Shown one piece after another: positions 35,618 through 52,346 of a DNA stretch of 64,000 bases (position 1 is its first letter; each line of letters begins with the position of its first letter). The translations under genes were made by a program, and so were the position numbers. The stretch lies in contig DAOTJR010000012.1 in assembly GCA_035448805.1 (NCBI GenBank), forward strand, positions 1,906 through 65,905, read 5' to 3'. The stretch comes from Syntrophales bacterium (GTDB lineage: Bacteria > Desulfobacterota > Syntrophia > Syntrophales > UBA8958). A model generated the notes under the pieces. It had not been told where the DNA came from, did no database searches, and worked only from the letters and a program-made list of their open reading frames with translations.

Positions 35618-36558
35618 TCCCCGCCGGGAGGCTCCTCAGAGATCATCGTGTGCGGCCCCGGCGCGGTTTGAGTCAGTCGTTTCTCCGGGACGACAACGTA
35701 GCCCGGAAGATCGTTACGGCAGCGGCGTTGCAAAAAAGCGACGTGGTGCTGGAGATAGGTTCCGGTCACGGTATCCTCACCCGACTTATCGCCCCGCGGA
35801 GCAGGAAGGTCCTGGCCGTGGAAATCGACCCGGAACTGGTCGCCGTCCTGGAAGATGCATGCGGGGGGATGGACAATGTCCGCATCCTGGCCGGTGATAT
35901 CCTGAAAATGGATCTGTTTTCCCTCGCCGCGGCTTATCCCGGAGCAAGACTCCGGGTCATCGGTAATATCCCCTACGGGATCGCCACGGAAATCCTTTTC
36001 CTCCTCCTGGCGCAGCGCCGGGTGATCGCCGGGGCGGTGATCATGGTTCAGAAAGAACTCGCCGAGCGTCTGACCGCCGGTCCGGGGACGAAAGCATACG
36101 GCATCCCGACAGTGCTGCTGGCCATGCATGCCCGCATAGAACATCTGTTCGATGTCCCGCCAAGCTGCTTTTATCCCCGTCCCCGCGTGATGTCCGCGGT
36201 CATTTCTCTGACATTTCTTGAACATCCCCTGGTGGCGCTGGCCGATGAGGAGCATTTTGCGCGCCTTGTCCGGGCCGCTTTCGCCCAGCGCCGCAAGACC
36301 GTCTGGAACAATCTCCGCCAGGCCCCGGAAATGGGTCTGGAAAAGGACCGGCTCCGGGAGATTATGGAAAACTGCGGGATCGACGGGGAGCGGCGCGCCG
36401 AAACGCTCACCGTGACCGATCTGGGACTGTTGAGCAATGCCTTAGCGGCGGCCGCCGGCGGCCAGACGCCCGGAGATGAAAGAAGCGACAAAGGCGGCGA
36501 TGCTGAAAAAGGCGCCGACAAGGAAGGCGCTCTGGAAGGCGGCGGAAACGGCGGTTAG
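35614..36558 (+). CDS. rsmA: 16S rRNA adenine dimethyltransferase KsgA/RsmA
   Basis: GLSQSFL, VLEIGSGHG, VEIDP, GNIPY, MVQKE, AFAQRRKT; TTG start at 35614 inferred. Confidence 0.95.
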   Translation: MIPAGRLLRDHRVRPRRGLSQSFLRDDNVARKIVTAAALQKSDVVLEIGSGHGILTRLIAPRSRKVLAVEIDPELVAVLEDACGGMDNVRILAGDILKMDLFSLAAAYPGARLRVIGNIPYGIATEILFLLLAQRRVIAGAVIMVQKELAERLTAGPGTKAYGIPTVLLAMHARIEHLFDVPPSCFYPRPRVMSAVISLTFLEHPLVALADEEHFARLVRAAFAQRRKTVWNNLRQAPEMGLEKDRLREIMENCGIDGERRAETLTVTDLGLLSNALAAAAGGQTPGDERSDKGGDAEKGADKEGALEGGGNGG

Positions 36559-37902
36559 ATTTTCCGAGTCGGCCCCGGCCGGTAAATCCCGGAGGGACAA
36601 ACCGGCCGGCAGGGAATGGGAAAACATGCCTTCGAAGAGACAGACCCCCAGGACCATCCCGACATTCATGACATTGGTGTAAATCGCCGAGGCGGCGCCC
36701 TGGTTTTCCGACGGGGCCAGGGTCATGACGAGATTGTTGTTGGCCGGGAAGAAGAGGGCGTAAGCGACGGCCAGCAGGATGAGATAGACCACCACCGGTG
36801 TCAGTCCCGGCAGGGGGATGGAGACGGCGAAGACCACACAGGCCGTAGCGGCCAGCAGCATGGCGATCGTACAGAGACGGCGCGGATCGCAACGGTCGGA
36901 AAGCTTGCCCGCGTAAGGTCCGATAGGCATGTAGACAAGGGAATAGATCATCACCACGGCCCCTACATGCTCCGGGCGCAGTCCCTTGACGATCTCCAGG
37001 TAGAAGGGAACGAGGAAATTTCCCCCTGCCAGCAGCATCAGGGCCAGCAGGGTGGTGAGGGTGGCCAGGGAGAAGTTCCGGTCCCGGAAAAGCGACAGCT
37101 TCAGGATAGGATCCCGGGTACTCTTTTCCTGGAGGAAGAAGGCGGTCAGGGAAAAGAAGGCGACGGACAAGGCAGCGATGATGATCATGTTCGTCCAGCC
37201 CATACCGTTGCCCATACTCAGGGCGAATACCAGAGCGGTGAGCCCGGTGAAGCTCAGGATGGAACCGGCGATGTCGAAGGTTGGTTTTGCCGGGACGGTA
37301 GCGGCGCCGGGATCGGCGGGCAGATTCCGCCGGGCGATGATGAAGGCCGTTATCCCTACCGGAATGTTGATCAGGAAGATCCAGCGCCAGGAAAGAAAGC
37401 CGGTGATGATGCCCCCGAGGGGGGCGCCGACCATGATCCCCAGAGAATTGGCCAGGGAACAGACCCCGAAGGCCCAGCCGACGATATGCCTGGGGAGATA
37501 ACGGGGGATGCCCGCCATACCGCCGGTGATCATCATGGCGCCGCCGGCCCCCTGCAGACAGCGGGCGGCGTCCAGAAAAAGGACGGTCGGAGAAATTCCG
37601 CAGAGAAAGGAGCCGAGCGTGAAGAGCCCGTAACCGCCGACGAATATCTTCTTCAAACCGACGCGATCCACGAGTTTGCCGCAGATGAGGGTCGAACCGG
37701 TCATGACCAGCAGATAGGAGAGAACGACCCAGGATACTTCATTGGCGCCGACCTGAAAATAGCGGGCCAGGCTCGGCAGGGAGATGTTGACCACATAGCC
37801 GTCCAGGCGCACCATGAACACGGCGAAGGCGACGCTGAAGACCACCCAGCGGACCTTTTTCCTTTCCGCCCGTGTTGCCCTTTCCCCGCTCCGACTGTTC
37901 AT
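36442..37902 (-). CDS. MFS transporter, DHA2 (14-TMS) family
   Basis: MVRLDGYVVNISLP, GKLVDRVG motif A, ARCLQGAGGA, WRWIFLINIP. Confidence 0.9.
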   Translation of the reverse strand: MNSRSGERATRAERKKVRWVVFSVAFAVFMVRLDGYVVNISLPSLARYFQVGANEVSWVVLSYLLVMTGSTLICGKLVDRVGLKKIFVGGYGLFTLGSFLCGISPTVLFLDAARCLQGAGGAMMITGGMAGIPRYLPRHIVGWAFGVCSLANSLGIMVGAPLGGIITGFLSWRWIFLINIPVGITAFIIARRNLPADPGAATVPAKPTFDIAGSILSFTGLTALVFALSMGNGMGWTNMIIIAALSVAFFSLTAFFLQEKSTRDPILKLSLFRDRNFSLATLTTLLALMLLAGGNFLVPFYLEIVKGLRPEHVGAVVMIYSLVYMPIGPYAGKLSDRCDPRRLCTIAMLLAATACVVFAVSIPLPGLTPVVVYLILLAVAYALFFPANNNLVMTLAPSENQGAASAIYTNVMNVGMVLGVCLFEGMFSHSLPAGLSLRDLPAGADSENLTAVSAAFQSAFLVGAFFSIAAFVASFISGRLAAGGRR

Positions 37903-38484: not shown

Positions 38485-39141
38485 ATGATCGATCTTCATA
38501 CCCATTCGCTTTTCAGTGACGGCGAGCTGATTCCGGCGGAATTGGTGCGGCGGGCCAAAGTCAAGGGTTATCGGGCCATCGCCGTTACCGATCACGGCGA
38601 CGGGTCGAACATAGATTTTATCGTTCCCCGCATCGCCCGCGTCGCCCGATCCCTGGGTGTCGCCAACGGGCTGGAGGTGATCTGCGGTATCGAGCTTACC
38701 CATGTGCCGCCTGGAGATATCGCCCCTCTCGCGGCGGAGGCGAGGGCGCTGGGGGCGCGGATCGTGATCGTCCACGGAGAGACGATCGCCGAGCCTGTGG
38801 CGCCGGGAACCAACCGGGCGGCACTGGAGGCGGGGGTGGACATTCTGGCCCACCCGGGTTTGATCACCGGGGAAGAGGTTGCCCTGGCGGCTTCCCGGGG
38901 GATATATCTGGAGGTGACGACGCGCCGGGGACACAGCCTCACCAACGGTCATGTAGTCAAGACGGCGAGGCAGCACGGGGCACCACTGGTCATGAACACC
39001 GACACCCACGGGCCTCAGGATCTGGTGTCGCGTGAACAGGCCGTCCTCATCGCCCGGGGGGCGGGCATGACGAACGATGAGATTGCCGTGATGTTTGCTA
39101 ACGCGGAATCATTGCTTAAAAAGGCGGGGGACATTCCATGA
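38485..39141 (+). CDS. PHP-domain metal-dependent phosphoesterase (histidinol-phosphatase-like)
   Basis: DLHTHS..SDG, VTDH, IELTH, VHGE, LAHPG, NTDTH metal ligands. Confidence 0.9.
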   Translation: MIDLHTHSLFSDGELIPAELVRRAKVKGYRAIAVTDHGDGSNIDFIVPRIARVARSLGVANGLEVICGIELTHVPPGDIAPLAAEARALGARIVIVHGETIAEPVAPGTNRAALEAGVDILAHPGLITGEEVALAASRGIYLEVTTRRGHSLTNGHVVKTARQHGAPLVMNTDTHGPQDLVSREQAVLIARGAGMTNDEIAVMFANAESLLKKAGDIP

Positions 39142-39157
39142 CAGGTGAACGGATACT

Positions 39158-40426
39158 GTGGTTACAGAAAATGAAAAGCGGAATGGCCGTCTGAAGATAT
39201 GCTTGCTGACCTATCGGGGTAATCCAACATGCGGCGGCCAGGGTGTTTACATAAACTATCTGAGCCGCGCCCTGCGTGATCTCGGTCACCGGGTCGAAGT
39301 GATCTCCGGTCCTCCTTATCCGGTCCTGGCCGAAGGTGTCAAACTTCACAAACTGCCCGGGCTCGATCTCTACAACCCCGATCATCTCTTCACGGTGCAG
39401 CGCCTGCGGGATCTTATTTCGCCGCTCAACCAGATCGAGTACGTTTCCATGTGCGCCGGGGGGTTCCCCGAACCCTTCACCTTCGGCTGGCGGGTTTTCA
39501 ACTATCTGCGTTCCCGGCGACCGGCCTACGATATCGTCCACGATAACCAGTGCCTGGCATACGGTTTGCTTGGCCTGCCCGCCCTGGGCTTTCCCACTCT
39601 GGCGACGATTCACCACCCCATTACCGTAGACCGGGACGTGGAACTGCAGGCGACCCGGGGGATCCTGAAAAAGATCAAGATCCACCGGTGGTATTCCTTC
39701 CTCCGGATGCAAAAGCGGGTGACAAGGCGACTGGCGCGGATCATTACCGTCTCGGAATGTTCCAAGCGGGACATCAGTAAGGATTTTCAAGTCACCGCCC
39801 ATAAATTCCGGGTGGTTCCCAATGGCATCAATACGGACTATTTCTATCCCTTGGGGAATGTCACCCGGGGGCCGCACCACCTTCTCACGACCAACAGCGC
39901 CGATACCCCTTTGAAGGGCCTCCGCTATCTTCTCGAGGCCGTGAAGATCCTCCGGGAGAAACGTCCTATCCATTTGACCGTCATCGGTGAACCAAAGAAG
40001 GACGGCGCGATCGAGGGGCTGGTGAGGGAGTGGCGGCTTCAGGAACAAGTCCGCTTTACCGGGCGGATCGCTTACGAAGAATTCGCGCGCTACTATGCCG
40101 AATGCACCATGGCGGTAATCCCCTCCCTCTATGAAGGTTTCGGAATGCCCGCGGGCGAGGCGATGGCCTGTGGGGTCCCCGTGATCAGCACCACCGGCGG
40201 CGCCCTGCCGGAAGTGGTAGGGGAGGCGGGGATTCTTGTCCCTCCCGGAGACAGCTCTGCCCTGGTCGAGGCCATCACCGACCTGCTGGACAATCCCCGG
40301 AAACGGGAAGAACTGGGCCGGGCCGGGCTGCAACGGGTCATGAATTCCCTCACCTGGGAACACGCCGCGCGAAAAACCGTTGACGTCTATCGGGAAACCA
40401 TTCATGCTCACCGTAGATTTCAGTAA
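39158..40426 (+). CDS. GT4 glycosyltransferase, ManT-like (putative alpha-mannosyltransferase)
   Basis: CGGQGVY, GFPEP.TF, DIVHDNQ, TIHHPIT.D, RWYSF..MQ, SAD.PLKG, IPSLYEGFGMPAGEAMA; matches the mycobacterial ManT family as I recall it. Confidence 0.85.
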   Translation: MVTENEKRNGRLKICLLTYRGNPTCGGQGVYINYLSRALRDLGHRVEVISGPPYPVLAEGVKLHKLPGLDLYNPDHLFTVQRLRDLISPLNQIEYVSMCAGGFPEPFTFGWRVFNYLRSRRPAYDIVHDNQCLAYGLLGLPALGFPTLATIHHPITVDRDVELQATRGILKKIKIHRWYSFLRMQKRVTRRLARIITVSECSKRDISKDFQVTAHKFRVVPNGINTDYFYPLGNVTRGPHHLLTTNSADTPLKGLRYLLEAVKILREKRPIHLTVIGEPKKDGAIEGLVREWRLQEQVRFTGRIAYEEFARYYAECTMAVIPSLYEGFGMPAGEAMACGVPVISTTGGALPEVVGEAGILVPPGDSSALVEAITDLLDNPRKREELGRAGLQRVMNSLTWEHAARKTVDVYRETIHAHRRFQ

Positions 40427-41108
40427 ACTGGAACTCAAGCCGGGCATGAAGGTCCTCGATGCCGGTTGCGGGTTGGGGCGCCATGTCGGCGAAGTTTTTC
40501 GTCGGGAAGGGATTGATGTCTGTGCCGTGGATTTGCGCTGGGACGACCTTTGCCGGACGAAAGGCCTCCTGTTCCATATGGCGGCTCAGAAAGGCGGGCG
40601 GTGGGCGGTCCTCCAGAGCGATGTCTTAGCGCTCCCCTTCAGGGATGCCGCCTTCGATGTGGTGATCTGCTCCGAAGTGCTTGAACACATTAAGGAAGGC
40701 AGGAGGGCGGTCGAAGAGATCGTCCGCATACTCAAACCGGGCGGCGAGCTGGTGGTAAGTGTCCCCAGGTATCTTCCGGAACGGATCTGCTGGCTTCTGT
40801 CCCGTTCCTACCATGAAGAACCGGGGGGACATGTCCGGATCTTCAGGCAGCGCGAACTGCAGCGGCTGCTGGAGGATGCCGGAACGGCATGTACGGCCGT
40901 GCGGTACAAGCACGCCCTCCATGCCCCTTACTGGTGGCTCCGTTGTCTGGTGGGACACAAGAACGAAGGCCATCCCCTCGTGAGGCTTTACCGGGAATTT
41001 CTCGAATGGGATATCATGACCCATCCGCCGTTAGTCCGGACTCTGGAGCGGCTTCTGGACCCACTTATCGCCAAGAGCGTCGTCTATTACATGAAGAAGG
41101 GATATTGA
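40404..41108 (+). CDS. Class I SAM-dependent methyltransferase (putative 3-O-methyltransferase of an MMP-like cluster)
   Basis: MLTVDF, VLDAGCG.GRH, SEVLEHI, VSVPR..PERICW.LS..YH..PGGHVRIF, HALH.PYWWL, WDIM. Confidence 0.85.
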   Translation: MLTVDFSKLELKPGMKVLDAGCGLGRHVGEVFRREGIDVCAVDLRWDDLCRTKGLLFHMAAQKGGRWAVLQSDVLALPFRDAAFDVVICSEVLEHIKEGRRAVEEIVRILKPGGELVVSVPRYLPERICWLLSRSYHEEPGGHVRIFRQRELQRLLEDAGTACTAVRYKHALHAPYWWLRCLVGHKNEGHPLVRLYREFLEWDIMTHPPLVRTLERLLDPLIAKSVVYYMKKGY

Positions 41109-41111
41109 GCT

Positions 41112-42173
41112 ATGAAACTGGCTGTGGAACCGAGTCCGGAACCACTGGTTGTCGATGTGGAAGGACTGGCCGCGTTCATTATGAAGGTCCAGAAGGAAAA
41201 CGGCGAGATACCATGGTCGGAAGGGGGAAAGACCGATCCCTGGGACCATGTGGAAAGCGCCATGGGACTGAGCGTGGCCGGAAAGATCGCCGCGGCGGAG
41301 CGGGCCTACGCCTGGATGGCGGCGACGCAACTGCCCGACGGCAGCTGGTGGTCCGCCGTCCGGAACGGTATTGTTGAAGACGGCACCCGGGAAAGCAATT
41401 TTGCGGCTTATATCGCCGTCGGGGTCTGGCATCATTATCTGATCACCGGCGACACGGATTTTCTGCGGCGTCTCTGGCCGACGGTGAAGGCGGGATTGAA
41501 CTATGCCCTGGGTCTGCAGGCGCCGGAAGGAGAGATATACTGGGCGAGGAACGCGGAAGGGAAGATAGATCCCATGGCCCTGCTGACCGGATCGAGTTCC
41601 ATCTACATGTCTCTGAAATGCGGGTTGAGCATCGCCGATCGCCTTGGGGTGCGAGCAGCTTCCTGGCACCGGGCCTGGGAGCGTCTCGGCCGGGCGCTCG
41701 CCGATCCCCCCAGCCACTTCAACATGATCAAGGCCCGCTTTTCCATGGACTGGTACTATCCGGTCCTTTGCGGGGCCATGAATGACCGGACAGCGAAAAA
41801 AAGGATCGAGCGCTTCTGGGACAAGTTCGCCGTTCCGGGCTGGGGGGTGCGCTGCGTCTGCGACCGGCCGTGGGTGACCATGGCCGAAACCTCGGAACTG
41901 GTCCTGACCCTGACGGCGGTCGAGGCCTTCGAGGAGGCCGAGCGGGTGTTCTCCTGGATCAGCGACAAGAGATACGAAGACGGCGTTTATTGGATGGGCG
42001 TCACATTTCCGGACACCGTTGTCTGGCCCGACGAAAAGACGACCTGGACGGCGGCAGCGGTCCTTCTGGCCTATGACGCCCTGAGAAACATCACCCCGGC
42101 GGCCCGTCTTTTCAGTCATCGCTCCTGGGAGGGAGGTCGTTGGTGCGGATCGGAGCGGTGCGTCGCCGGATGA
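41112..42173 (+). CDS. (alpha/alpha)-barrel glycoside hydrolase-like protein, MmpH-like (this family is often auto-annotated 'prenyltransferase')
   Basis: DPWDHVE, YIAVGVWHH, LLTGSSS, RFSMDWYYPVL, GVRCV.DRPWVT.AET.E, YWMG, TTWTAAAV. Confidence 0.75.
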   Translation: MKLAVEPSPEPLVVDVEGLAAFIMKVQKENGEIPWSEGGKTDPWDHVESAMGLSVAGKIAAAERAYAWMAATQLPDGSWWSAVRNGIVEDGTRESNFAAYIAVGVWHHYLITGDTDFLRRLWPTVKAGLNYALGLQAPEGEIYWARNAEGKIDPMALLTGSSSIYMSLKCGLSIADRLGVRAASWHRAWERLGRALADPPSHFNMIKARFSMDWYYPVLCGAMNDRTAKKRIERFWDKFAVPGWGVRCVCDRPWVTMAETSELVLTLTAVEAFEEAERVFSWISDKRYEDGVYWMGVTFPDTVVWPDEKTTWTAAAVLLAYDALRNITPAARLFSHRSWEGGRWCGSERCVAG

Positions 42174-42385
42174 AGCGGCCCTTCCGGTGATCGACCCCGC
42201 CGTTTGCAAGAGGGACTTGCCCATGGGCGGAAAGAGACGCGGTGCGGGCCGGAACAGAGACCGCCGTGTCACCGGCAGCATCGGTATCGGCGCGGCGGAA
42301 GTTACGAAGCTTTTCCGGTCCTTCGCCCCGGCCGGGGAGGGGGGACGGCGGGTATCGGCGCCGCCGCCGGGGCATTGATGAATTT

Positions 42386-43108
42386 ATGAGAAGAGATACG
42401 AGGCCGTACCGGCTCAAACGACTGCACCTCCTTTGGCAACGCCTGTATGCGGAGCACTTTCTCCGTCCCCAGTTCGATCATTTGGGGGTGGAGCCGTTGT
42501 TCATGAAACCATGGTACGTCGAAGTCTTCGGCGGGTCGGTTTCTCTGGGAGATTATGCCCACGTCATCGCCGCCCCCGACAAGCGGGTGCGGCTCACCGT
42601 CTGGTCGAACTTTGCCGGGCAGGGTAAAATAGACATCGGCAACTGCTGTCTGATCTGTCCGGGCGTCCGGGTCAGCGCGGCCCGGGAAATAACCATCGGC
42701 GACAGTTGCATGCTGGCCCAGGGGGTGTTCATAACCGATTCGGACTGGCATGGCATTTACGACCGCAGCCTCTCCGTGGGACAAAGTGCGCCGGTGCGCA
42801 TCGCGGCCAATGTCTGGATCGGCGACAGCGCCATGATCTGTAAGGGTGTCAAAATCGGTGAAAATTCGATCATCGGGGCGGGATCCGTGGTCTTGCGGGA
42901 CATCCCGGCGAATGTCATAGCCGGCGGCAACCCCGCGACGGTGCTCAAGACCCTCGACCGGGAGCGGCACATGAAAACCCGGGCGGACTGGCTTGCCCGG
43001 CCGGACCGGCTGGCGGCCGAATTCGACGCCATCGACCGGCACCTTATGAAGGGAAATACCTGGAGCGGCTGGTTTCGGTCGCTGGTGTGGCCCGGTCGTC
43101 AGGATTGA
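42386..43108 (+). CDS. Hexapeptide-repeat (left-handed beta-helix) O-acyltransferase
   Basis: IDIGNCCLI, ITIGDSCML, ITDSDWH, VWIGDSAMICKGVKIGENSIIGAGSVV..DIP..VIAGGNPA. Confidence 0.88.
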   Translation: MRRDTRPYRLKRLHLLWQRLYAEHFLRPQFDHLGVEPLFMKPWYVEVFGGSVSLGDYAHVIAAPDKRVRLTVWSNFAGQGKIDIGNCCLICPGVRVSAAREITIGDSCMLAQGVFITDSDWHGIYDRSLSVGQSAPVRIAANVWIGDSAMICKGVKIGENSIIGAGSVVLRDIPANVIAGGNPATVLKTLDRERHMKTRADWLARPDRLAAEFDAIDRHLMKGNTWSGWFRSLVWPGRQD

Positions 43109-43132
43109 TGCACGGAAAGAAGAAGGTCTAAA

Positions 43133-44734
43133 ATGAAAGTCGCCATCATCGCCCCGCCTTATCCCCTTGCCGAGGCCCCCGCGCCGCCCCTGGGGGTGAG
43201 TTATGTCGCCGCCGCTTTCCTTGCCGCCGGGGCGGAGGTGCGGGTCTTCGATTACATCGTCCGGCGGTATACCGAAGCGAAACTTCAAGCTGAGCTCGAC
43301 AGTTTTCAACCCGACATCGTAGGCGCCACATCCGTCACCCTGAATTTTCCCGGCGCCGCCGCGATCCTCACGGCGGTCAAGCGGTACCGGCCCGAAGTCG
43401 TCACGGTTATGGGGGGGCCCCATGTTTCGTTTACGGCGGCTGCGACCCTGCAGGCCTATCCCGGCATCGATATAATCGTCATGGGGGAGGGGGAGGAGAC
43501 GATCAATGAACTGGTAAATGCCGAATTTGACGAAAGAAAGCTCTCCATGATCAGAGGAATTGCCTACCGGAGCAACGGGGAGCCGGTGGTCAATGAAGCC
43601 CGGGCCTTCATCGCCGACCTGGATGCGTTACCGTTGCCCGCCCGGCACCTCCTGCCCCTTTCCCGTTACCGCGCCCTGGGCTATCCGATCAGCATCATTA
43701 CCGGGCGCGGTTGCCCTTACAAATGTATCTTCTGTCAGGGCCGCCGCATGGTGGGCGCCAAGATCAGAAGCCGGTCCGCATCCCTCGTCGTCGATGAAAT
43801 AGAAGAAATCATGTCCTACGGGATCGACCGCATCAACGTCGCCGACGATCTCTTTGTCACGGACAGGAAAAAGGTGCGCGCGGTTTGCGATGAAATCAGG
43901 CGGCGGGGATTGCGTTTCTCCTGGAGCGCCTTTGCCCGGGTCAACACCGTGGATCGGGAGACCCTTGAAATCATGAAGGCCACAGGATGCGACAGCATCA
44001 GCTTCGGTGTCGAATCGGGGAACCCGGAGATGCTGATCCGGATCAAGAAGAAGATCACCCTCCCTCAGGTTCGCCGTGCTGTCCGGCTATGCCAGGATGT
44101 CGGTATCCTGCCCCATACCTCCTTTGTGGTGGGTCTGCCCGGGGAATCGCCGGAAACCCTTGCGGACACGAGGAAATTTGCGTCTTCCCTGGGATCGTTA
44201 TATGGTTATCATATCCTGGCACCCTTTCCCGGCACGACCGTCCGGGAACGGGTGGCGGAATACGACCTGGAGATCCTGACCGACGACTGGACCCGCTACG
44301 ATGCCAACCGGGCCATTACCCGTACTTCCCGGTTAAGACCGGAAGACATTGATGCCTTTGTGGATGAATTCGAAGGGGAAATCATGAAGGGTTGGCATAA
44401 ACAGGTCCGCAATTATCAGACCGGCGCCAATTCCCCGGCGGAGGATCTGCAGGTGGCGGGTTATTTTCGTACCCAGTTCGTCTATCGCCTCCTCTCCGAG
44501 GATTTGATCGAAAGGTTGGGGGAGGACGAGGTCGGGGAGGACGAAGCGGGATCGGAAGAGCGACTGTGCCGGCGTCTCATCGCGACGACGGGTACTGACG
44601 AAGCATTGGTGCGGCGGGCCGTCGCCGATTTCATCTCCCGGGGCTTCATCAAGTACGGGACACGGGTGGGAATACCAGGGGGAAAACCGGGCTGGTTCTG
44701 GACCCACAACAACAAGATCGATTCCCTGTCGTGA
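43133..44734 (+). CDS. Cobalamin-binding radical SAM enzyme (class B architecture)
   Basis: N-terminal PLGVSYVAA...VMGGPHVS...GEGE B12-binding region; GRGCPYKCIFC; ADDLF; ISFGVESG. Confidence 0.93.
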   Translation: MKVAIIAPPYPLAEAPAPPLGVSYVAAAFLAAGAEVRVFDYIVRRYTEAKLQAELDSFQPDIVGATSVTLNFPGAAAILTAVKRYRPEVVTVMGGPHVSFTAAATLQAYPGIDIIVMGEGEETINELVNAEFDERKLSMIRGIAYRSNGEPVVNEARAFIADLDALPLPARHLLPLSRYRALGYPISIITGRGCPYKCIFCQGRRMVGAKIRSRSASLVVDEIEEIMSYGIDRINVADDLFVTDRKKVRAVCDEIRRRGLRFSWSAFARVNTVDRETLEIMKATGCDSISFGVESGNPEMLIRIKKKITLPQVRRAVRLCQDVGILPHTSFVVGLPGESPETLADTRKFASSLGSLYGYHILAPFPGTTVRERVAEYDLEILTDDWTRYDANRAITRTSRLRPEDIDAFVDEFEGEIMKGWHKQVRNYQTGANSPAEDLQVAGYFRTQFVYRLLSEDLIERLGEDEVGEDEAGSEERLCRRLIATTGTDEALVRRAVADFISRGFIKYGTRVGIPGGKPGWFWTHNNKIDSLS

Positions 44735-44857
44735 AGATGTTGTTTGCCGCCCTCCCGGGGGTATCTCCGTGTCGTTAGGGCCGCAAATATTCGTCTCTTG
44801 TTGTCACCGCCGCCCGGTTCCGGGGGGGCAAACCAATGCCGTGAATACGGCGCCGCT

Positions 44858-44968
44858 GTTGCAACCTGATTTGATTTCCCGCTACCGGTTCAGCTGAGGC
44901 CGCGGGCGGTTTCCGCGCTACCATCACGGTCGTTGCAATCTGATTTGATTCCCCGCTACCGGTTCAAC
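44858..44968. repeat. Two 37-bp direct repeats separated by a 37-bp unique spacer; the second copy overlaps the 3' end of the MeT1-like gene
   Basis: GTTGCAACCTGATTTGATTTCCCGCTACCGGTTCAGC (44858-44894) vs GTTGCAATCTGATTTGATTCCCCGCTACCGGTTCAAC (44932-44968); 3 mismatches. Confidence 0.85.
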
Positions 44969-45639
44969 TTTTCCCAGACGGCAAGAGCGGAGGGAGGTAG
45001 TGAATCGCCGCCGGTCTTGCGGAGCACTCCCAGGCTGCGGGTCATGGGCAATTCACTGAAAAGTCCGGAAGCCAGGGCCAATCTGTAGATCAGGTGCGGG
45101 GCCTGTCCCCCGTCGGCGGCGGTGAAAAAGATGTCATGGATCGCCAGCACCCCGCCCGGCAGGAGATGGGAGGCCCAGGCGGAATAATCGGCATAGGCGG
45201 CCGCCAAGGTATGGCTGCCGTCGATGAAGACGAAACTCAAGGGGGTACGCCAGGCGCGGGCGACCAGGGAGGCGGGGGCGACGATAGGCACGACGGTGTC
45301 GGTCAATTGCAGTTCCTCCATGGTCCTTCTGAACAGGGGGAAGGTGTCGACGCGGCCGGTCCGGTTGTCGAAGATATCCGGATCGAAATACTCCTCTCCG
45401 GGCTGTTGTTCCTCCGAGCCCCGATGGTGGTCGATGGAAAAAAGAACCGCACGGTGCTGTCGGCAGGCCAGGCCGATGAAGGCCGCCGACTTCCCGCAAT
45501 AGCTGCCGATCTCCAGACAGGGGCCATGCCGGCTCACCTCGCCGGCCAGTTCATAGAGGCGGATGGCTTCCTCATCATGAAGAAAACCCTTGATATTCTT
45601 AACTAAAAGATCGGCGACGGAAGTATCTGTTCTTTGCAC
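44956..45639 (-). CDS. Methyltransf_24-family SAM methyltransferase, MeT1-like (putative 1-O-methyltransferase)
   Basis: KGFL...E, LEIGSYCGKS, IDHHRGSEEQQPGEEYFDP, VARAWRTPLSFVFIDGSH, AIHDIF...DGGQAP..IY.LAL. Confidence 0.88.
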   Translation of the reverse strand: MQRTDTSVADLLVKNIKGFLHDEEAIRLYELAGEVSRHGPCLEIGSYCGKSAAFIGLACRQHRAVLFSIDHHRGSEEQQPGEEYFDPDIFDNRTGRVDTFPLFRRTMEELQLTDTVVPIVAPASLVARAWRTPLSFVFIDGSHTLAAAYADYSAWASHLLPGGVLAIHDIFFTAADGGQAPHLIYRLALASGLFSELPMTRSLGVLRKTGGDSLPPSALAVWEKLNR

Positions 45640-45675: not shown

Positions 45676-46464
45676 CTATCTTACCGGGCTGAAAACCGTT
45701 CCGTCGGGCATGATTTCCACCAGACGATCGTTCCGGGTGTCCACTTTGGTGAGGATGGCCGGGACCTTTTTGCCGGGGGCGGCGGCCAGAACCGCCTCGA
45801 TGCTGCGATAAGCCGCCAGCTCCCGGAGGGTCATGATCGTGGGGAGGACCATGGGGAACCGATCGGCGGCATATTCCGTCAGGGCGCGTCGGGGAGTGAT
45901 CCAGACATGGCCGGTCAACTCCACCCCGTCCGGGCATGCGGATTGATCTTCCGGGGCCCGGGTCACGAAAAAGCGGACATCATAACGTAACGGCAGGAAT
46001 TCCGGCGTAATCCAGTGGGCAAAATATTCCAGGCGATCACAGGCCAAAACCAACCGCTCTTCCCTGACCAGCTCGTTAAAGTTTTTCTCCCCGGCCAGGA
46101 GCCGGCGGCGGAGAAATGCCAGCCTGTCCTGCGGGACCGGGGTATGGGCCAGAAGGATACCCGTTTCTTCGAAGGTTTCCCTAACCGCGGCCACCCAGGC
46201 ACCACAGGCCAATTCGGCATTGGGCATGTCACCGAGGATCCGGAGGGCCGTCTCCCTGTCCCGGCCCCGGCAATAGGGGAGCAACTCCGGAGCGCAGTCT
46301 TCTTCATCAATACATCCTCCTGGAAACACGTAACATTCAGGTACGAAAGCGCTGTCCGGATGACGATGGACCATCAGGACTTCGAAGGGGCCGTCTCCGG
46401 CCCCGGCTTCGGGTCGCATGATGATGACCGTCGCTGCCTCCTTGGGGGTGGCGATGCTATGCAA
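45676..46464 (-). CDS. Nudix hydrolase, NUDT19/RP2-like
   Basis: AATVIIMR, YVFPGG.ID.ED, AAVRETFEETGILLA, AHWITP...RYDVRFF, PTIMTL. Confidence 0.85.
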   Translation of the reverse strand: MHSIATPKEAATVIIMRPEAGAGDGPFEVLMVHRHPDSAFVPECYVFPGGCIDEEDCAPELLPYCRGRDRETALRILGDMPNAELACGAWVAAVRETFEETGILLAHTPVPQDRLAFLRRRLLAGEKNFNELVREERLVLACDRLEYFAHWITPEFLPLRYDVRFFVTRAPEDQSACPDGVELTGHVWITPRRALTEYAADRFPMVLPTIMTLRELAAYRSIEAVLAAAPGKKVPAILTKVDTRNDRLVEIMPDGTVFSPVR

Positions 46465-46646: not shown

Positions 46647-48158
46647 ATGACCACCCCGATCCAACAAAAGATTCGCGACAAGAAGCGCACCCCGTCGCAG
46701 ATCCTCGATATGGTCAAATCGGGGGACTGGATTCAGCCCGGTTCCGTCGGCGGTGACGCGACGGTATGCATGAAAGAGCTGGCCCGGCGTCTCGGACCCC
46801 ATTTGAAAGACATAGAAATCTGGAACTATGCCATGTTTTTCCCCCACCCCGAATTTCAGCAGGTGGACCCGAAACAGGAGTACCATGTCTTTCATGAATA
46901 TTTCTTTTTCCCCTGGCATCGCAAGGCCAGAGACGTCAACAATGTGACGAGCTGGGCCCAGTGGGGCTGGGCGATGGGCGTCTGGAACACCCATTACCGC
47001 TTCGTCCACGCCGTCCGGGAGAAGCGGGGCCTGGACTGGTGGTGGAACGCGGCCACTGCCTTCGACGAACACGGTTTTGTGAACTTTTCCTACGGGACCA
47101 ACAACGCCTTCATCTATTCCCAGTGTGCGAAAAGATGCGTCATGGAGGTTCGCTCCGACTATCCCTGGGCGGAAGGCGGGCGGCTGAATACCTTTCATAT
47201 CGACGACATCGACTACTGGGTAGAGGTCGATGTGGAAAAATACCGGTGGCCCCAGATCAATGAAAGGAGCATGCGGGCCAACCCGGAGGAACAGGCCATC
47301 GCCGACAACATCATGACGATCATGAGGGATCGGGATGTCATCCAGCTCGGCATCGGCTCCCTGCCTTCGGCCTGCGTCGGGGCGATGGCGAATGCCGGGT
47401 TCAGGGATTTGGGCATCCATACGGAGATGCTCAACGCCGGCCTCATCAAACTCATCGAATCCGGTCAGGTGACCAATCGCTACAAGTCCCTGACGGCCGA
47501 CCGGGGCAAGAGCGTCTATACCTTTGCCTTTCCCGTGGATGCGGCCTGGTACTACAATACGATCCACCGGAACCCCAACATGGCCGTGTACGACATCAAT
47601 TATACCAACAATGTGCATAACCTGACCCGTCTGGACAACATGCTCGCCATCGACAATTGCATTGCCGTCGATCTCCTCGGGCAGCAGTGTTCCGGATTTT
47701 ATCAAAAAAGGCCGATTTCGAGTACCGGGGGATATTTCAATTTCATCGTCTTCTGCGGCCAGAGTAAAGGCGGGCGGGGTGTCGCCGCCATGACCTCCCG
47801 AAGCAAGCACGGCACCTCCCGCATCGTACCTTTCCTCCCCGAAGGCTCGGCGGTGGATGTGCCGGCGCAGTTCAGTCAATATATCTGCACCGAATACGGT
47901 ATCGTGAATCTCCGCGGCCTCAATGGCTATGAACGGGCGGCGGCTCTCATCTCCATCGCCCATCCCGACGATCGGGAGTGGCTCGAACGGGAGGCACGGA
48001 AACACGGCCTCCTGGCGCCGAGTTTTCCCGTTTCCATGCTGCCAAGGGAGGGCGGGGCCAGGCGTTATCCCGCCTACAATGACCGCCGCCAATACAAGCT
48101 GCCCTATCACGGCGAGATTTGGGGATATGACTGGGACCCCTATCAATCCGCGAAGTAA
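46647..48158 (+). CDS. Acetyl-CoA hydrolase/transferase family CoA-transferase (second stand-alone paralog)
   Basis: DVIQLGIGSLP, DLGIHTEM (Glu kept), ISSTGG, ICTEYGIVN, ISIAHPDDR. Confidence 0.9.
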   Translation: MTTPIQQKIRDKKRTPSQILDMVKSGDWIQPGSVGGDATVCMKELARRLGPHLKDIEIWNYAMFFPHPEFQQVDPKQEYHVFHEYFFFPWHRKARDVNNVTSWAQWGWAMGVWNTHYRFVHAVREKRGLDWWWNAATAFDEHGFVNFSYGTNNAFIYSQCAKRCVMEVRSDYPWAEGGRLNTFHIDDIDYWVEVDVEKYRWPQINERSMRANPEEQAIADNIMTIMRDRDVIQLGIGSLPSACVGAMANAGFRDLGIHTEMLNAGLIKLIESGQVTNRYKSLTADRGKSVYTFAFPVDAAWYYNTIHRNPNMAVYDINYTNNVHNLTRLDNMLAIDNCIAVDLLGQQCSGFYQKRPISSTGGYFNFIVFCGQSKGGRGVAAMTSRSKHGTSRIVPFLPEGSAVDVPAQFSQYICTEYGIVNLRGLNGYERAAALISIAHPDDREWLEREARKHGLLAPSFPVSMLPREGGARRYPAYNDRRQYKLPYHGEIWGYDWDPYQSAK

Positions 48159-49465: not shown

Positions 49466-49658
49466 AAATAAACATTGACTTGGGCGGTCTTCTCAGGCAT
49501 GTCAAACGGCGATCCGGCGCCGAAGCGGCAGCTACGGAGACCCCACATGACGATCTCCGTTTTCGAGCAGGATGAAAAAACGTCAATACACCAAGAAGAT
49601 GGGGTTGCCTTTCCCGGGGAAAGGTTTCCCTGCGCAAGGTTGTCGAGGTCGAAACAAG

Positions 49659-51023
49659 GTGAAAAGCATCGCCAGATTGAATGTTCTTTTGCTCGGTGTC
49701 CTGATTTTCCTCTTTCCCGGCGGCCGGGTTGGGGCCGTCGAATACGGTTGGGAGGATTTGTGCCGCATCGCCCTGGAGAGATCGGAGCGGATCAGGATCG
49801 CCGAGGAGAATGTGGCCCTGGCCCGGGCCGGCAAGGACAAGAAACGGGCCGCCCTGATTCCCAAACTCTCCGCATACGGATCATACACCGATTATACGGA
49901 AAATAAATACTCCCCCGGCACCGTTGTCCCCAATACGGCGATTGTCCTGCCCGGCTCGCTTGTCCAACCCAACAACGCGGCTACCTGGGGCGTACGCCTG
50001 GACCATGTCCTGACCCTCAACGGGAGGGAAGCGGTCGATTTTTCCATCGCCAAAGACAACATTCTCCGGCAGGAGCAGGAGGCAAATGCCCAGAAAGAGG
50101 AATATCTCATGACCGTATCGACGGCTTATTATGAGACACTGCGGGCGCAAAAGGTCTTGGAGATCGCCGAGGCCACGGTGGAAAGGTTGACCGCCTACCG
50201 TCGGGCGGCGGAAAAAAGACTTAAAATCGGAGAGGTTACAAAAACCGTACTCCTGCGGGCCGATGGCGAGTTGTCCGGGGCCCTTTCCGACCGGATCAAG
50301 GCGCAAAACAGCCTGGATCTTTCCCGGGCGGTCCTGGCCAGGATCGTCGGGATTGCGGAGGATTTTCGTCTTAAGGAAAAATTTCCGGCCGATGCCCCGC
50401 TGCCGCCTTTAGAAAATTTTGTTGCCGTCGGCCTGGCCCGCCGGGCGGAAATGAAAAGTGTCGAGATAGAAAAACAGATGGCCAAGGACCAGATACGGGT
50501 TGCCAAAGGCGGCTACTGGCCCACATTGTCCATAGCCGGGGTCTATGGCCGGATGGACCAGGACCCCATCGCCGGCAGCACCAATAGAGAAAGTGTCTAT
50601 GGACAGGCGGCGCTGAACTATCCTTTTTTCGAAGGGGGATTGCGGCAGGCGGAGGTTCGGGAGGCGATCATCCGGGACCGGCAGACGGAGTTGAAGCTTG
50701 CCGATCTTAAAAAGACCATCCGCATCGAGGTGGAAACCACCTATGTGGAACTGAAAAATCAGCAGGGCATCATCAAAGCTCTGCAGGACCAGTTGCTCTT
50801 CGCCCGGGAAAATTACCAGGCCGTAACCCGGCAGTTCGAGATGGGGCTGGCCAACAGCATCGATGTCATGGACGCCAACACCCTTCTGGTAGCGACGGAA
50901 CGGCAACTGGCAAACGCCGTTTATTCCCATCAGGTGTTTCAACTACGCATGAAGCGGGTTACCGGGGTGCTGCTGGAAGAGATCACCGCCGGTGCGGTGT
51001 CGGAAAAGACGCCCCGACCCTGA
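49659..51023 (+). CDS. TolC-family outer membrane efflux protein
   Basis: Signal peptide after GTG 49659; OEP repeats, RLKIGEVTKT, GGYWPTLS, QFEMGLANSIDVMDA. Confidence 0.9.
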   Translation: MKSIARLNVLLLGVLIFLFPGGRVGAVEYGWEDLCRIALERSERIRIAEENVALARAGKDKKRAALIPKLSAYGSYTDYTENKYSPGTVVPNTAIVLPGSLVQPNNAATWGVRLDHVLTLNGREAVDFSIAKDNILRQEQEANAQKEEYLMTVSTAYYETLRAQKVLEIAEATVERLTAYRRAAEKRLKIGEVTKTVLLRADGELSGALSDRIKAQNSLDLSRAVLARIVGIAEDFRLKEKFPADAPLPPLENFVAVGLARRAEMKSVEIEKQMAKDQIRVAKGGYWPTLSIAGVYGRMDQDPIAGSTNRESVYGQAALNYPFFEGGLRQAEVREAIIRDRQTELKLADLKKTIRIEVETTYVELKNQQGIIKALQDQLLFARENYQAVTRQFEMGLANSIDVMDANTLLVATERQLANAVYSHQVFQLRMKRVTGVLLEEITAGAVSEKTPRP

Positions 51024-51254
51024 AAAATCCGGTATTACGGTCCGTTATGATGTGAATCTTCATGACGGTATCCATCATGAAGCATGATGAAAATGGTCAA
51101 TATTTACAAGAAGATAAAATTGCATCTATGAGTGAAATGTCGGCAAGTGGTCGATCATTTTCATCTATCGTTGTCGCCGCCTGTGGTCATGGCGGTCAGG
51201 TCGCAGGCGCCGGCGGGGATTCGACGGCGGCGCTTGCCAAGCAAGGAGATCTCG

Positions 51255-52346
51255 ATGATAGGACATTACCGACGGCGATGCCGCCCGATACTTGTTGCCG
51301 CACTGCTGTTTTTGTTCCTGCCCCTGCTCGGTTGCGGAAGTCAGCAGGATAAAAACGTGAAGGAAAGGGTTTTCAATGTCCGGGCCGCTACCGTCCAGAA
51401 ACAGGCTTTACGGCCCTTTGTGGAAGCCGTCGGCACCCTGAAGGCCAATGAAGAAGTGATCGTCAGTTCGGAGATCGACGGTATCATCAGACGCATCACC
51501 GTTGCGGAAGGTTCCCGGGTGGGGAGGGGAACGCTGATCGCCGAAATTAATGATACGGATTACCGTCTGGAGGTCAAACGGGCGGAAGCGGCCCTCCGCC
51601 AGGCCCAGGCCTCTCTGGCCAATGCCAGGCTGGAATTCGAGAGGAAAGAGGCCCTCTACAGAGAACAGCTTGTAACCCGTCAGCAGTTCGATGACATAAC
51701 CGCCCGGCTGGCGGTGGCGGAAGGCGACGTGGAACGGGCTCAGGCGGCTCTCGCCCTGGCGAAGGAGAAGCTTGCCAAGACAAAGATCCTTGCCCCCCTG
51801 GGGGGATCCATAAAGGAGAAGCGCATCACGGCGGGAGATTATGTCCGAAACGGGATGCCCTTGTTTTACCTGATTCAGACTGACCCTTTGAAGCTCAGTT
51901 TCTCCATCATTGAGCGGGAGGTGGCCCGGGTCCAAGCGGGACAGGATGTCCGGTTTACCGTTGATTCCTTTCCGGGCCGGGAGTTCCATGGGGTGCTGAA
52001 GACCGTATATCCCCATCTGGAGGAAAAGACAAGGACCATGCAGGCGGAAGCGGTTGTCGCCAATGACCGGCAGCTTCTCAAGCCGGGCCTTTACGCCCGG
52101 GTCGTCCTTTACACCGGCGCCGCCCGGGAGGTGGTCACCGTTCCCGTCAATTCTATTTTGTATGAAGGCACCAACGTCAAGGCCTTCATCGTGGAGAATG
52201 GGACGGCGGTTGAGAAGCCTTTGAAAATAGGGCAGAAATACGGAGAAGTCATGGAGGTTCTCGAGGGATTGCACGGGGGAGAGGAACTGGTCGTTGTGGG
52301 ACAGAACAACCTGTCTCCCGGGGTGAAGGTCAATGTGGCTCGCTGA
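51255..52346 (+). CDS. RND efflux periplasmic adaptor (MFP), probable lipoprotein
   Basis: LLGC lipobox, VEAVGTL, SSEIDGII, ILAPLGG, LKPGLYAR, VVVGQ. Confidence 0.92.
   Translation: MIGHYRRRCRPILVAALLFLFLPLLGCGSQQDKNVKERVFNVRAATVQKQALRPFVEAVGTLKANEEVIVSSEIDGIIRRITVAEGSRVGRGTLIAEINDTDYRLEVKRAEAALRQAQASLANARLEFERKEALYREQLVTRQQFDDITARLAVAEGDVERAQAALALAKEKLAKTKILAPLGGSIKEKRITAGDYVRNGMPLFYLIQTDPLKLSFSIIEREVARVQAGQDVRFTVDSFPGREFHGVLKTVYPHLEEKTRTMQAEAVVANDRQLLKPGLYARVVLYTGAAREVVTVPVNSILYEGTNVKAFIVENGTAVEKPLKIGQKYGEVMEVLEGLHGGEELVVVGQNNLSPGVKVNVAR

Follow-up and report, generated by a model that had tools for sequence, protein, structure and literature searches.

A probable methylmannose polysaccharide locus with two accessory enzymes in a Syntrophales bacterium

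The locus studied here lies on contig DAOTJR010000012.1 of a Syntrophales bacterium (assembly GCA_035448805.1), within a stretch of 64,000 nucleotides (nt) that we call the window. It comprises six genes, and we consider it likely to be the Syntrophales version of the mycobacterial system for synthesis and recycling of methylmannose polysaccharide (MMP), a reading argued from orthology, synteny, residue conservation, and co-inheritance. Since the 1960s, MMP has been regarded as an actinobacterial, chiefly mycobacterial polymer, and its physiological role (fatty-acid metabolism, cold adaptation) is debated. The core system is already known and is widespread; what is new here is the version found in this host lineage, with two accessory enzymes. 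The six genes are listed below; residue numbers in the text refer to the window proteins unless stated, and those of the acyltransferase to its open reading frame (ORF) of 288 amino acids (aa).

39158-40426, plus strand: ManT orthologue, a retaining glycosyltransferase of family GT4 (match to PDB 7qsg, reciprocal best hit)
40404-41108, plus strand: pMeT3 orthologue, a class I S-adenosylmethionine (SAM) methyltransferase, putative mannose 3-O-methyltransferase (Pfam, synteny)
41112-42173, plus strand: MmpH orthologue, a 353-aa (alpha/alpha)6-barrel protein, predicted endo-alpha-mannosidase (match to PDB 7qsj)
42386-43108 (revised start; ORF 42242-43108), plus strand: hexapeptide (left-handed beta-helix) O-acyltransferase (Pfam Hexapep)
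43133-44734, plus strand: cobalamin-binding (class B type) radical SAM enzyme (Pfam B12-binding and Radical_SAM)
44956-45639, minus strand, convergent: MeT1 orthologue, Methyltransf_24, predicted 1-O-methyltransferase (match to PDB 6g7d)

All six ORFs reported in a first-pass annotation of this DNA are intact in the ORF list at the coordinates it gave, and its domain calls were reproduced with Pfam and NCBIfam. The first three genes are as tightly coupled as it described: pMeT3, read from the ATG at 40404 (the longest ORF starts from a TTG at 40380), overlaps the ManT stop by 23 nt, and MmpH begins 3 nt past the pMeT3 stop. The acyltransferase most likely starts at the ATG at 42386 (240 aa) and not at 42242, because similarity to 28 relatives begins at residue 48 or 49 of the 288-aa ORF and the relatives have open frames of ∼242 aa. 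Between the MmpH stop and this probable start lies a G+C-rich spacer of 212 nt (42174-42385), which is open in the acyltransferase frame and therefore gives rise to the spurious 288-aa ORF. The MmpH and acyltransferase matches in genomes of the same genus are only ∼30 nt apart. Rfam searches of the intergenic spacers, including 42174-42385, gave no match at E ≤ 1, and no riboswitch or other RNA; promoter and terminator scans returned signals no higher than the shuffled expectation. Possible selenocysteine codons, flagged as "TGA inside" in the genome search, were discarded, as they are not genuine internal stops.

The orthology of the core four genes was examined in both directions. When compared with all PDB chains by phmmer, the window ManT matched M. 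hassiacum ManT (PDB 7qsg) over its full length (E = 1.2e-102; next match, 3e-30), with 43.9% identity over 401 aligned residues; for scale, the M. hassiacum and Streptomyces griseus ManT proteins are 53% identical (PMC9883506). MmpH and MeT1 each had a sole PDB match, MmpH to 7qsj (E = 5.1e-101; 50% identity over 316 residues) and MeT1 to M. hassiacum MeT1, 6g7d (E = 2.4e-57, full length; 46.8% identity over 216 residues). None of these three matches can be put down to chance. For pMeT3, whose counterpart is without a solved structure, Pfam returned Methyltransf_23/11/25, and the protein is 47 to 48% identical to the product of the same-position gene in two Mycobacterium loci (L066 and L071). 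Conversely, when the four M. parascrofulaceum proteins were searched against the window's own genome (2.68 Mb, 100% complete), the window genes came first for ManT (340 versus 89 bits) and pMeT3 (223 versus 54 bits) and were the only matches for MmpH, which is present there in a single copy, and for MeT1. Full-length reciprocal similarity to mycobacterial ManT, 3-O-methyltransferase, MmpH, and MeT1, the check that the first-pass annotation had proposed, was thus found for all four genes.

The arrangement of the genes is also shared. The order ManT, pMeT3, MmpH with a convergent MeT1 is the same in Mycobacterium (L066, L071, L055, and L075) and Nocardia (L072), and both order and orientation recur in gammaproteobacterial, Dehalococcoidia, and deltaproteobacterial loci. 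The mycobacterial reference genes are MHAS_04402-04405 of M. hassiacum and MSMEG_6481-6484 of M. smegmatis, with structures 7qsg, 7qsj, and 6g7d (Maranha 2023, PMC9883506). The window cluster resembles the mycobacterial one in its four reciprocal best hits at 44 to 50% identity, in gene order and orientation, and in consisting of soluble proteins with no exporter encoded. It differs in its host, an anaerobic Syntrophales-type deltaproteobacterium with a predicted product; in the acyltransferase and B12 radical SAM genes inserted between mmpH and meT1; and in ManT, which has Tyr at the position of Asp293. The mycobacterial genes and structures are reportedly covered by a further source as well, Ripoll-Rozada 2019. 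Taken together, reciprocal hits, synteny, and the conserved catalytic residues described below support the view that all four core genes are true orthologues of the mycobacterial MMP genes, and they back, at the level of orthology, the earlier interpretation of this locus as MMP-like.

For MmpH and ManT, functional residues were taken from PMC9883506, in which the importance of MmpH D47, D50, and E262 was shown by mutagenesis, E265 is also listed, and W49, F102, T163, M215, and Y219 of M. hassiacum are given as subsite residues. All nine of these published active-site positions are identical in the window MmpH, in which D42, W44, D45, F97, T159, M212, Y216, E259, and E262 map in order to D47, W49, D50, F102, T163, M215, Y219, E262, and E265. 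In ManT, G26, H152, K253, E326, and E334 correspond to the published G15, H142, K240, E313, and E321, and none of the five varies among 63 homologues. The SAM motif of pMeT3 (D19-G21-G23-G25 and D43) is likewise constant in 63 homologues. In MeT1, 50 homologues, with mycobacterial ones among them, share 29 invariant positions, including D70-H71-H72, E77, Q79, D86, D140, H143, H168-D169, and G177-G178. The motifs that the first-pass annotation had named for ManT (CGGQGVY, GFPEP, HDNQ, and HHPIT) and for MeT1 (EIGxYCGKS, DHHxGSEExQPG, and DGGQAP) are all shared by the window proteins and the sequences of the M. hassiacum crystal structures.

A side observation concerns the DPWD motif of MmpH, whose second acidic residue (window D45, M. 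hassiacum Asp50) is Asn in most of the diverse family representatives. The window protein and the mycobacterial enzymes have Asp at this position, and an Asp50-to-Ala variant is drastically less active. Part of the wider MmpH family may differ in mechanism or substrate.

We analyzed the distribution of MmpH and the accessory genes in a sample of 151 genomes of the order (62 genera) and that of MmpH in a sample of 301 genomes across the phylum. MmpH occurs in 75 of the 151 order genomes and in 34 of the 62 genera, including 6 of 6 genomes of the window's genus; across the phylum, it was found in 37 of 301. The closest named loci belong to Syntrophaceae, Smithella, and unclassified deltaproteobacterial metagenome-assembled genomes (MAGs), at 59 to 83% identity. 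Within the order, the acyltransferase is encoded in 72 genomes, the radical SAM orthologue in 74, and MeT1 in 72; these three and MmpH occur together in 67, and partial gene sets come mostly from fragmented assemblies. Pairwise co-occurrence in these genomes gives Fisher p values of 1e-34 to 1e-40. Each of the two extra genes is present in 72 of the 75 MmpH-positive genomes, and on the strength of this co-inheritance we assign both the acyltransferase and the radical SAM enzyme to the MMP system, as the first-pass annotation had done in counting extra tailoring enzymes as part of the locus.

The acyltransferase is similar to O-acetyltransferases of the maltose and galactoside type; its best PDB matches, to maltose O-acetyltransferases (E = 2e-20), are confined to the C-terminal 95 residues, and its NCBIfam matches (WbbJ, Maa, WcaF, and LacA) all fall below the cut-offs. 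Residues D166, D168, W169, and H170 (D-x-D-W-H) are invariant in 28 homologues, and H170 is likely the catalytic His. Among genomes of the order, the gene is absent from all 76 that lack MmpH, and where present, it is always adjacent to MmpH. In Desulfobacteraceae (L014-L030; for example, L020:7968-10050), MmpH and the acyltransferase form a stand-alone pair amid genes unrelated to them (BatA/VWA and OmpA), and the same genomes carry a ManT orthologue, 55 to 58% identical, at another site. The MMP system can be split, and the MmpH-acyltransferase pair is its tightest unit.

There is a known polymer of the kind that the acyltransferase would predict. S. griseus makes acetylated MMP (AMMP) (PMC9883506), which, like the polymer predicted here from the MmpH-linked acyltransferase, is of MMP type and bears O-acyl groups. 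The acyltransferase that makes AMMP is not named in that paper. In the one Streptomyces locus examined (L076), no hexapeptide acyltransferase lies between mmpH and meT1, and the AMMP and window acyltransferases may therefore be unrelated; an acyltransferase gene that would link the Streptomyces MMP locus to AMMP was looked for in L076 and not found.

The second accessory protein combines a B12-binding domain (PF02310, E = 7.6e-25) with a radical SAM domain (PF04055, E = 4e-25), and its C194-x3-C198-x2-C201 motif is invariant among homologues. An AlphaFold2 model (predicted local distance difference test score of 90) was matched by Foldseek to AprD4, TsrM, OxsB, MgmA, TokK, and CysS at template modeling (TM) scores of 0.56 to 0.65. 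NCBIfam scores are far under the cut-offs, the best being BchE at 200 bits versus 481. The enzyme resembles the cobalamin-dependent radical SAM methylases in its N-terminal B12-binding domain, its CxxxCxxC core, and its fold, which is that of TsrM, TokK, CysS, and MgmA; it differs from them in that its identity to any solved member is only 16 to 24% and in that its fold is equally near those of the non-methylases AprD4 and OxsB. Naming its reaction by fold search was accordingly set aside as uninformative, since these two match as well as the methylases do.

Of the 72 MmpH-positive genomes that have the radical SAM gene, 65 have it within 5 kb of MmpH. In family f2, in which it is unlinked from MmpH, it adjoins MeT1; in L021, both genes lie on one strand, the radical SAM gene first and MeT1 20 nt after it; and the Desulfarculus locus L027 has the two side by side in divergent orientation and lacks the acyltransferase. 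Since the acyltransferase stays with MmpH and the radical SAM gene with MeT1 in split loci, the system looks modular, with ManT and pMeT3, MmpH and the acyltransferase, and the radical SAM enzyme and MeT1 as its units. We also considered that the radical SAM enzyme acts on an acyl group added by the acyltransferase. This idea is weakened by the occurrence of each gene without the other: the acyltransferase is missing from the Desulfarculus-type loci L027 and L021, which have the radical SAM gene, and the reverse holds for Microbulbifer and some Desulfobacteraceae loci.

It could still be that the core four genes make an MMP-like polymer while the acyltransferase and the radical SAM enzyme are mere neighbours with unrelated substrates, an explanation that we rate as improbable. 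In its favor, neither accessory enzyme has a characterised close relative, and paralogues of the radical SAM enzyme, 39 to 45% identical, are encoded in MmpH-negative families of the phylum (L084:7429-9000, minus strand; L086:7296-8924, plus strand; L085; L087; and L088), next to two or three M16 peptidase genes or to TldD/PmbA peptidase and CoA-ligase-like genes. However, both genes track MmpH across the 151 genomes (72 of 75 versus 0 to 2 of 76), the acyltransferase sits beside MmpH even in Desulfobacteraceae, where ManT is elsewhere, and the radical SAM gene sits beside MeT1 in the split clusters of family f2. Moreover, the MMP-linked radical SAM proteins are separated from the paralogues by a single branch with a support of 88 in the Shimodaira-Hasegawa-like approximate likelihood ratio test (SH-aLRT), and the branching of their tree mirrors that of the four-gene tree. 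The paralogue loci could belong to a system that modifies peptides; their context was discarded as a pointer to function, the M16 and TldD/PmbA neighbours being unrelated to sugars.

A quite different explanation is that the genes tailor a surface or secreted glycan, such as a methyl-capped polymannose O-antigen or a capsule, or else a glycosylated secondary metabolite. Tailoring of O-antigens or natural products typically draws on a GT4 enzyme, methyltransferases, a left-handed beta-helix acetyltransferase, and a radical SAM enzyme; the acyltransferase has weak NCBIfam similarity to WbbJ and WcaF, and a major facilitator superfamily (MFS) transporter gene lies divergently upstream (36442-37902). 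We nonetheless regard this explanation as highly improbable. The synteny of the MFS gene is not conserved, and neither the window nor the related loci hold a polyprenyl-phosphate glycosyltransferase, flippase, polymerase, ABC exporter, or scaffold-forming synthase. The hydrolase has its orthologue, with a matching active site, in MmpH, an enzyme of intracellular recycling, and the gene set is a stable trait of the lineage, found in half of the order, and not a variable island. In a hydropathy scan, none of the six proteins showed a membrane-spanning stretch or a signal segment: their highest 19-residue Kyte-Doolittle value is ≤1.49, and no N-terminus is signal-like. The conserved synteny of the locus includes no exporter. 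Six soluble proteins and the lack of an exporter thus point to a product that stays in the cytoplasm.

Beyond the order, the MMP-type cluster is found in several phyla. A profile scan for MmpH in one genome per Genome Taxonomy Database (GTDB) species recovered the Mycobacterium, Nocardia, Dietzia, and Streptomyces loci, and the four-gene block was also found in Halieaceae, Cellvibrionales, Microbulbifer, Dehalococcoidia, and one alphaproteobacterial MAG. In a tree of the four concatenated proteins, a branch sets each of three groups apart from the rest: 12 actinobacterial sequences (SH-aLRT support of 100), 25 gammaproteobacterial ones (87), and 11 deltaproteobacterial ones (100). Recent horizontal transfer from Actinobacteria is not supported by this tree; its grouping by phylum fits long residence in each phylum. 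The host had been singled out as unusual, and it is indeed an anaerobic deltaproteobacterium, but it is not exceptional, as the cluster is present in about half of its order and in other nonactinobacterial phyla.

If the locus is the counterpart of the mycobacterial system, its enzymes would work as follows; the enzymatic steps, the identity of the product, and its role in ligand binding are all predictions. ManT would extend short oligomannosides through alpha-1,4 linkages from a nucleotide-mannose donor, probably guanosine diphosphate (GDP)-mannose; pMeT3 would O-methylate the added units, presumably at 3-O; and MeT1 would cap the reducing end by methylating the anomeric 1-OH. MmpH would cut mature chains internally and so release oligomers that prime new chains, which would make the synthesis self-recycling, with a product that remains in the cytoplasm. 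The acyltransferase, genetically tied to MmpH, would most likely O-acylate mannose hydroxyls, with the acetylated MMP of S. griseus as a precedent. The radical SAM enzyme, genetically tied to MeT1, would most likely methylate an unactivated carbon of the sugar or of an existing substituent. Methylation is favored because the characterised enzymes with this architecture are mostly methylases, and the substrates of several of these are sugars (GenK, GenD1, Fom3, and MoeK5) or, for the iterative CysS, O-methyl groups (PMC12931638). By this analogy, we favor methylation of the oligosaccharide at the MeT1-linked stage.

Some observations weigh against this scheme. Neither MMP nor MMP genes outside Actinobacteria were found in the literature searched, an absence that applies to that literature only. 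Even in mycobacteria, pMeT3 is a putative enzyme (PMC9883506), and the Foldseek match of the radical SAM enzyme cannot tell methylases from the dehydratase AprD4 or the rearranging OxsB. Finally, five of the six ManT residues named in PMC9883506 are kept, the exception being Asp293, which is replaced by Tyr306. Because of this Tyr, GDP-mannose, although still the likely donor, is not secured, and the nucleotide could differ.

Taken further, the substitution would allow the same enzymes to serve another sugar chemistry, in which the GT4 enzyme uses a donor other than GDP-mannose, the product is a non-mannan polymethylated oligosaccharide, and the hydrolase and methyltransferases are co-adapted to it. 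We consider this unlikely. The position is Asp in all actinobacterial loci, and it is only there that it is strictly conserved; the other loci have Tyr (as in the window), His, Asn, Gln, Asp, Thr, or Ser. On the other hand, it varies within a single orthologous group, even among close deltaproteobacterial relatives, some of which (L010, L013, L021, and L027) keep Asp, and the role of Asp293, a contact to guanine N2, was itself proposed from a comparison with Asp253 of PimA, the residue not having been mutated (PMC9883506). In addition, the residues that hold the mannosyl and ribose moieties (the E313-G-F motif, E321, and K240) are invariant, and the nine sugar-subsite residues of MmpH, the hydrophobic ones included, are identical to those of the MMP-specific enzyme. 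As to the supply of GDP-mannose, the genome encodes a ManC-type guanylyltransferase (C2:40963-42027). Over positions 2-352 of TIGR01479, which form the guanylyltransferase part of that bifunctional model, it scores 319 bits (E = 3e-95); the score stays under the model's cut-off because the isomerase part is encoded elsewhere.

The polymer that we predict from the MMP-type locus is probably widespread and chemically modified in this lineage. By analogy with findings in mycobacteria, it is presumed to bind hydrophobic ligands such as acyl chains and thereby to buffer acyl-CoA during fatty-acid oxidation. A functional analogue would be the mycobacterial 6-O-methylglucose lipopolysaccharide (MGLP), which is likewise cytoplasmic, polymethylated, additionally acylated, and a proposed binder of fatty acyl groups; unlike the predicted polymer, MGLP is a glucan made from a glucosylglycerate primer by unrelated genes. 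A bolder proposal, possible but in our view doubtful, is that a hitherto unseen class of cytoplasmic glycan is produced by anaerobic Thermodesulfobacteriota, namely, Syntrophales, Desulfarculus-type, and some Desulfobacterales-like families. It would be an O-acylated, radical-SAM-alkylated methylmannan that sequesters acyl-CoA or fatty acids. The radical SAM enzyme would then work together with MeT1, either C-methylating mannose or converting O-methyl to O-ethyl or O-isopropyl groups, as CysS does, and the result would be a more hydrophobic polymer in syntrophic oxidisers of fatty acids and alkanes.

If the assignment of the locus to MMP synthesis is true, an MMP-type polymer would be an old and general bacterial device rather than a mycobacterial adaptation, because the orthologous cluster is found in half of an order of obligately anaerobic syntrophs and in several proteobacterial and Chloroflexota lineages. 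Its function would become open to study in organisms that live wholly by the oxidation of fatty acids or alkanes. The two co-inherited enzymes would also imply novel glycan chemistry, part of it a B12-dependent radical reaction on an intracellular oligosaccharide, for which no precedent was found in the literature searched.

The MmpH family is large. More than 6,300 homologues were found at E ≤ 1e-10 in a 90%-clustered collection; in a 50%-clustered one, 292 cluster representatives reach E ≤ 1e-30, and a single MmpH peptide pattern has matches in at least 600 GTDB species. NCBI names many of these homologues "hypothetical protein" or "phenyltransferase domain-containing protein," so that, with thousands of them under such labels, a large annotation gap exists. 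The family is without a Pfam model of its own, and the sole Pfam match, to a rhamnosidase six-hairpin domain, is subthreshold. Some homologues (P0149, P0154, P0163, and P0179) form the C-terminal domain of proteins of 519 to 740 aa, whose fusion partners might hint at function.

The genes that flank the cluster in the window are as follows.

36442-37902, divergent, upstream of the cluster: MFS transporter
38485-39141, plus strand: PHP-family phosphatase (NF004981/PRK06361, 308 bits), 16 nt upstream of ManT
45676-46464, minus strand: Nudix hydrolase of 262 aa (best PDB match 3qsj, E = 5e-14), 36 nt upstream of MeT1
46647-48158 and 49572-52346, both plus strand, downstream: acetyl-CoA hydrolase/transferase, outer-membrane efflux protein (OEP), and HlyD-type membrane-fusion protein

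The MFS, Nudix, and acetyl-CoA hydrolase genes were rejected as parts of the locus, as their synteny is not conserved past the closest relative, and past that relative the OEP and HlyD-type genes, too, lack synteny with the cluster. The Nudix hydrolase has an FPGG motif upstream of its Nudix box that resembles those of CoA pyrophosphatases, and its gene is kept only in the closest relative, L002. The PHP-family phosphatase was considered as a seventh member of the system, its synteny with ManT being kept in many relatives, and was ruled out on the grounds that its presence is independent of MmpH: orthologues occur in 130 of the 151 order genomes, 71 of which have no MmpH, and are missing from 16 MmpH-positive ones. 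It is a housekeeping neighbour, possibly cotranscribed with the cluster.

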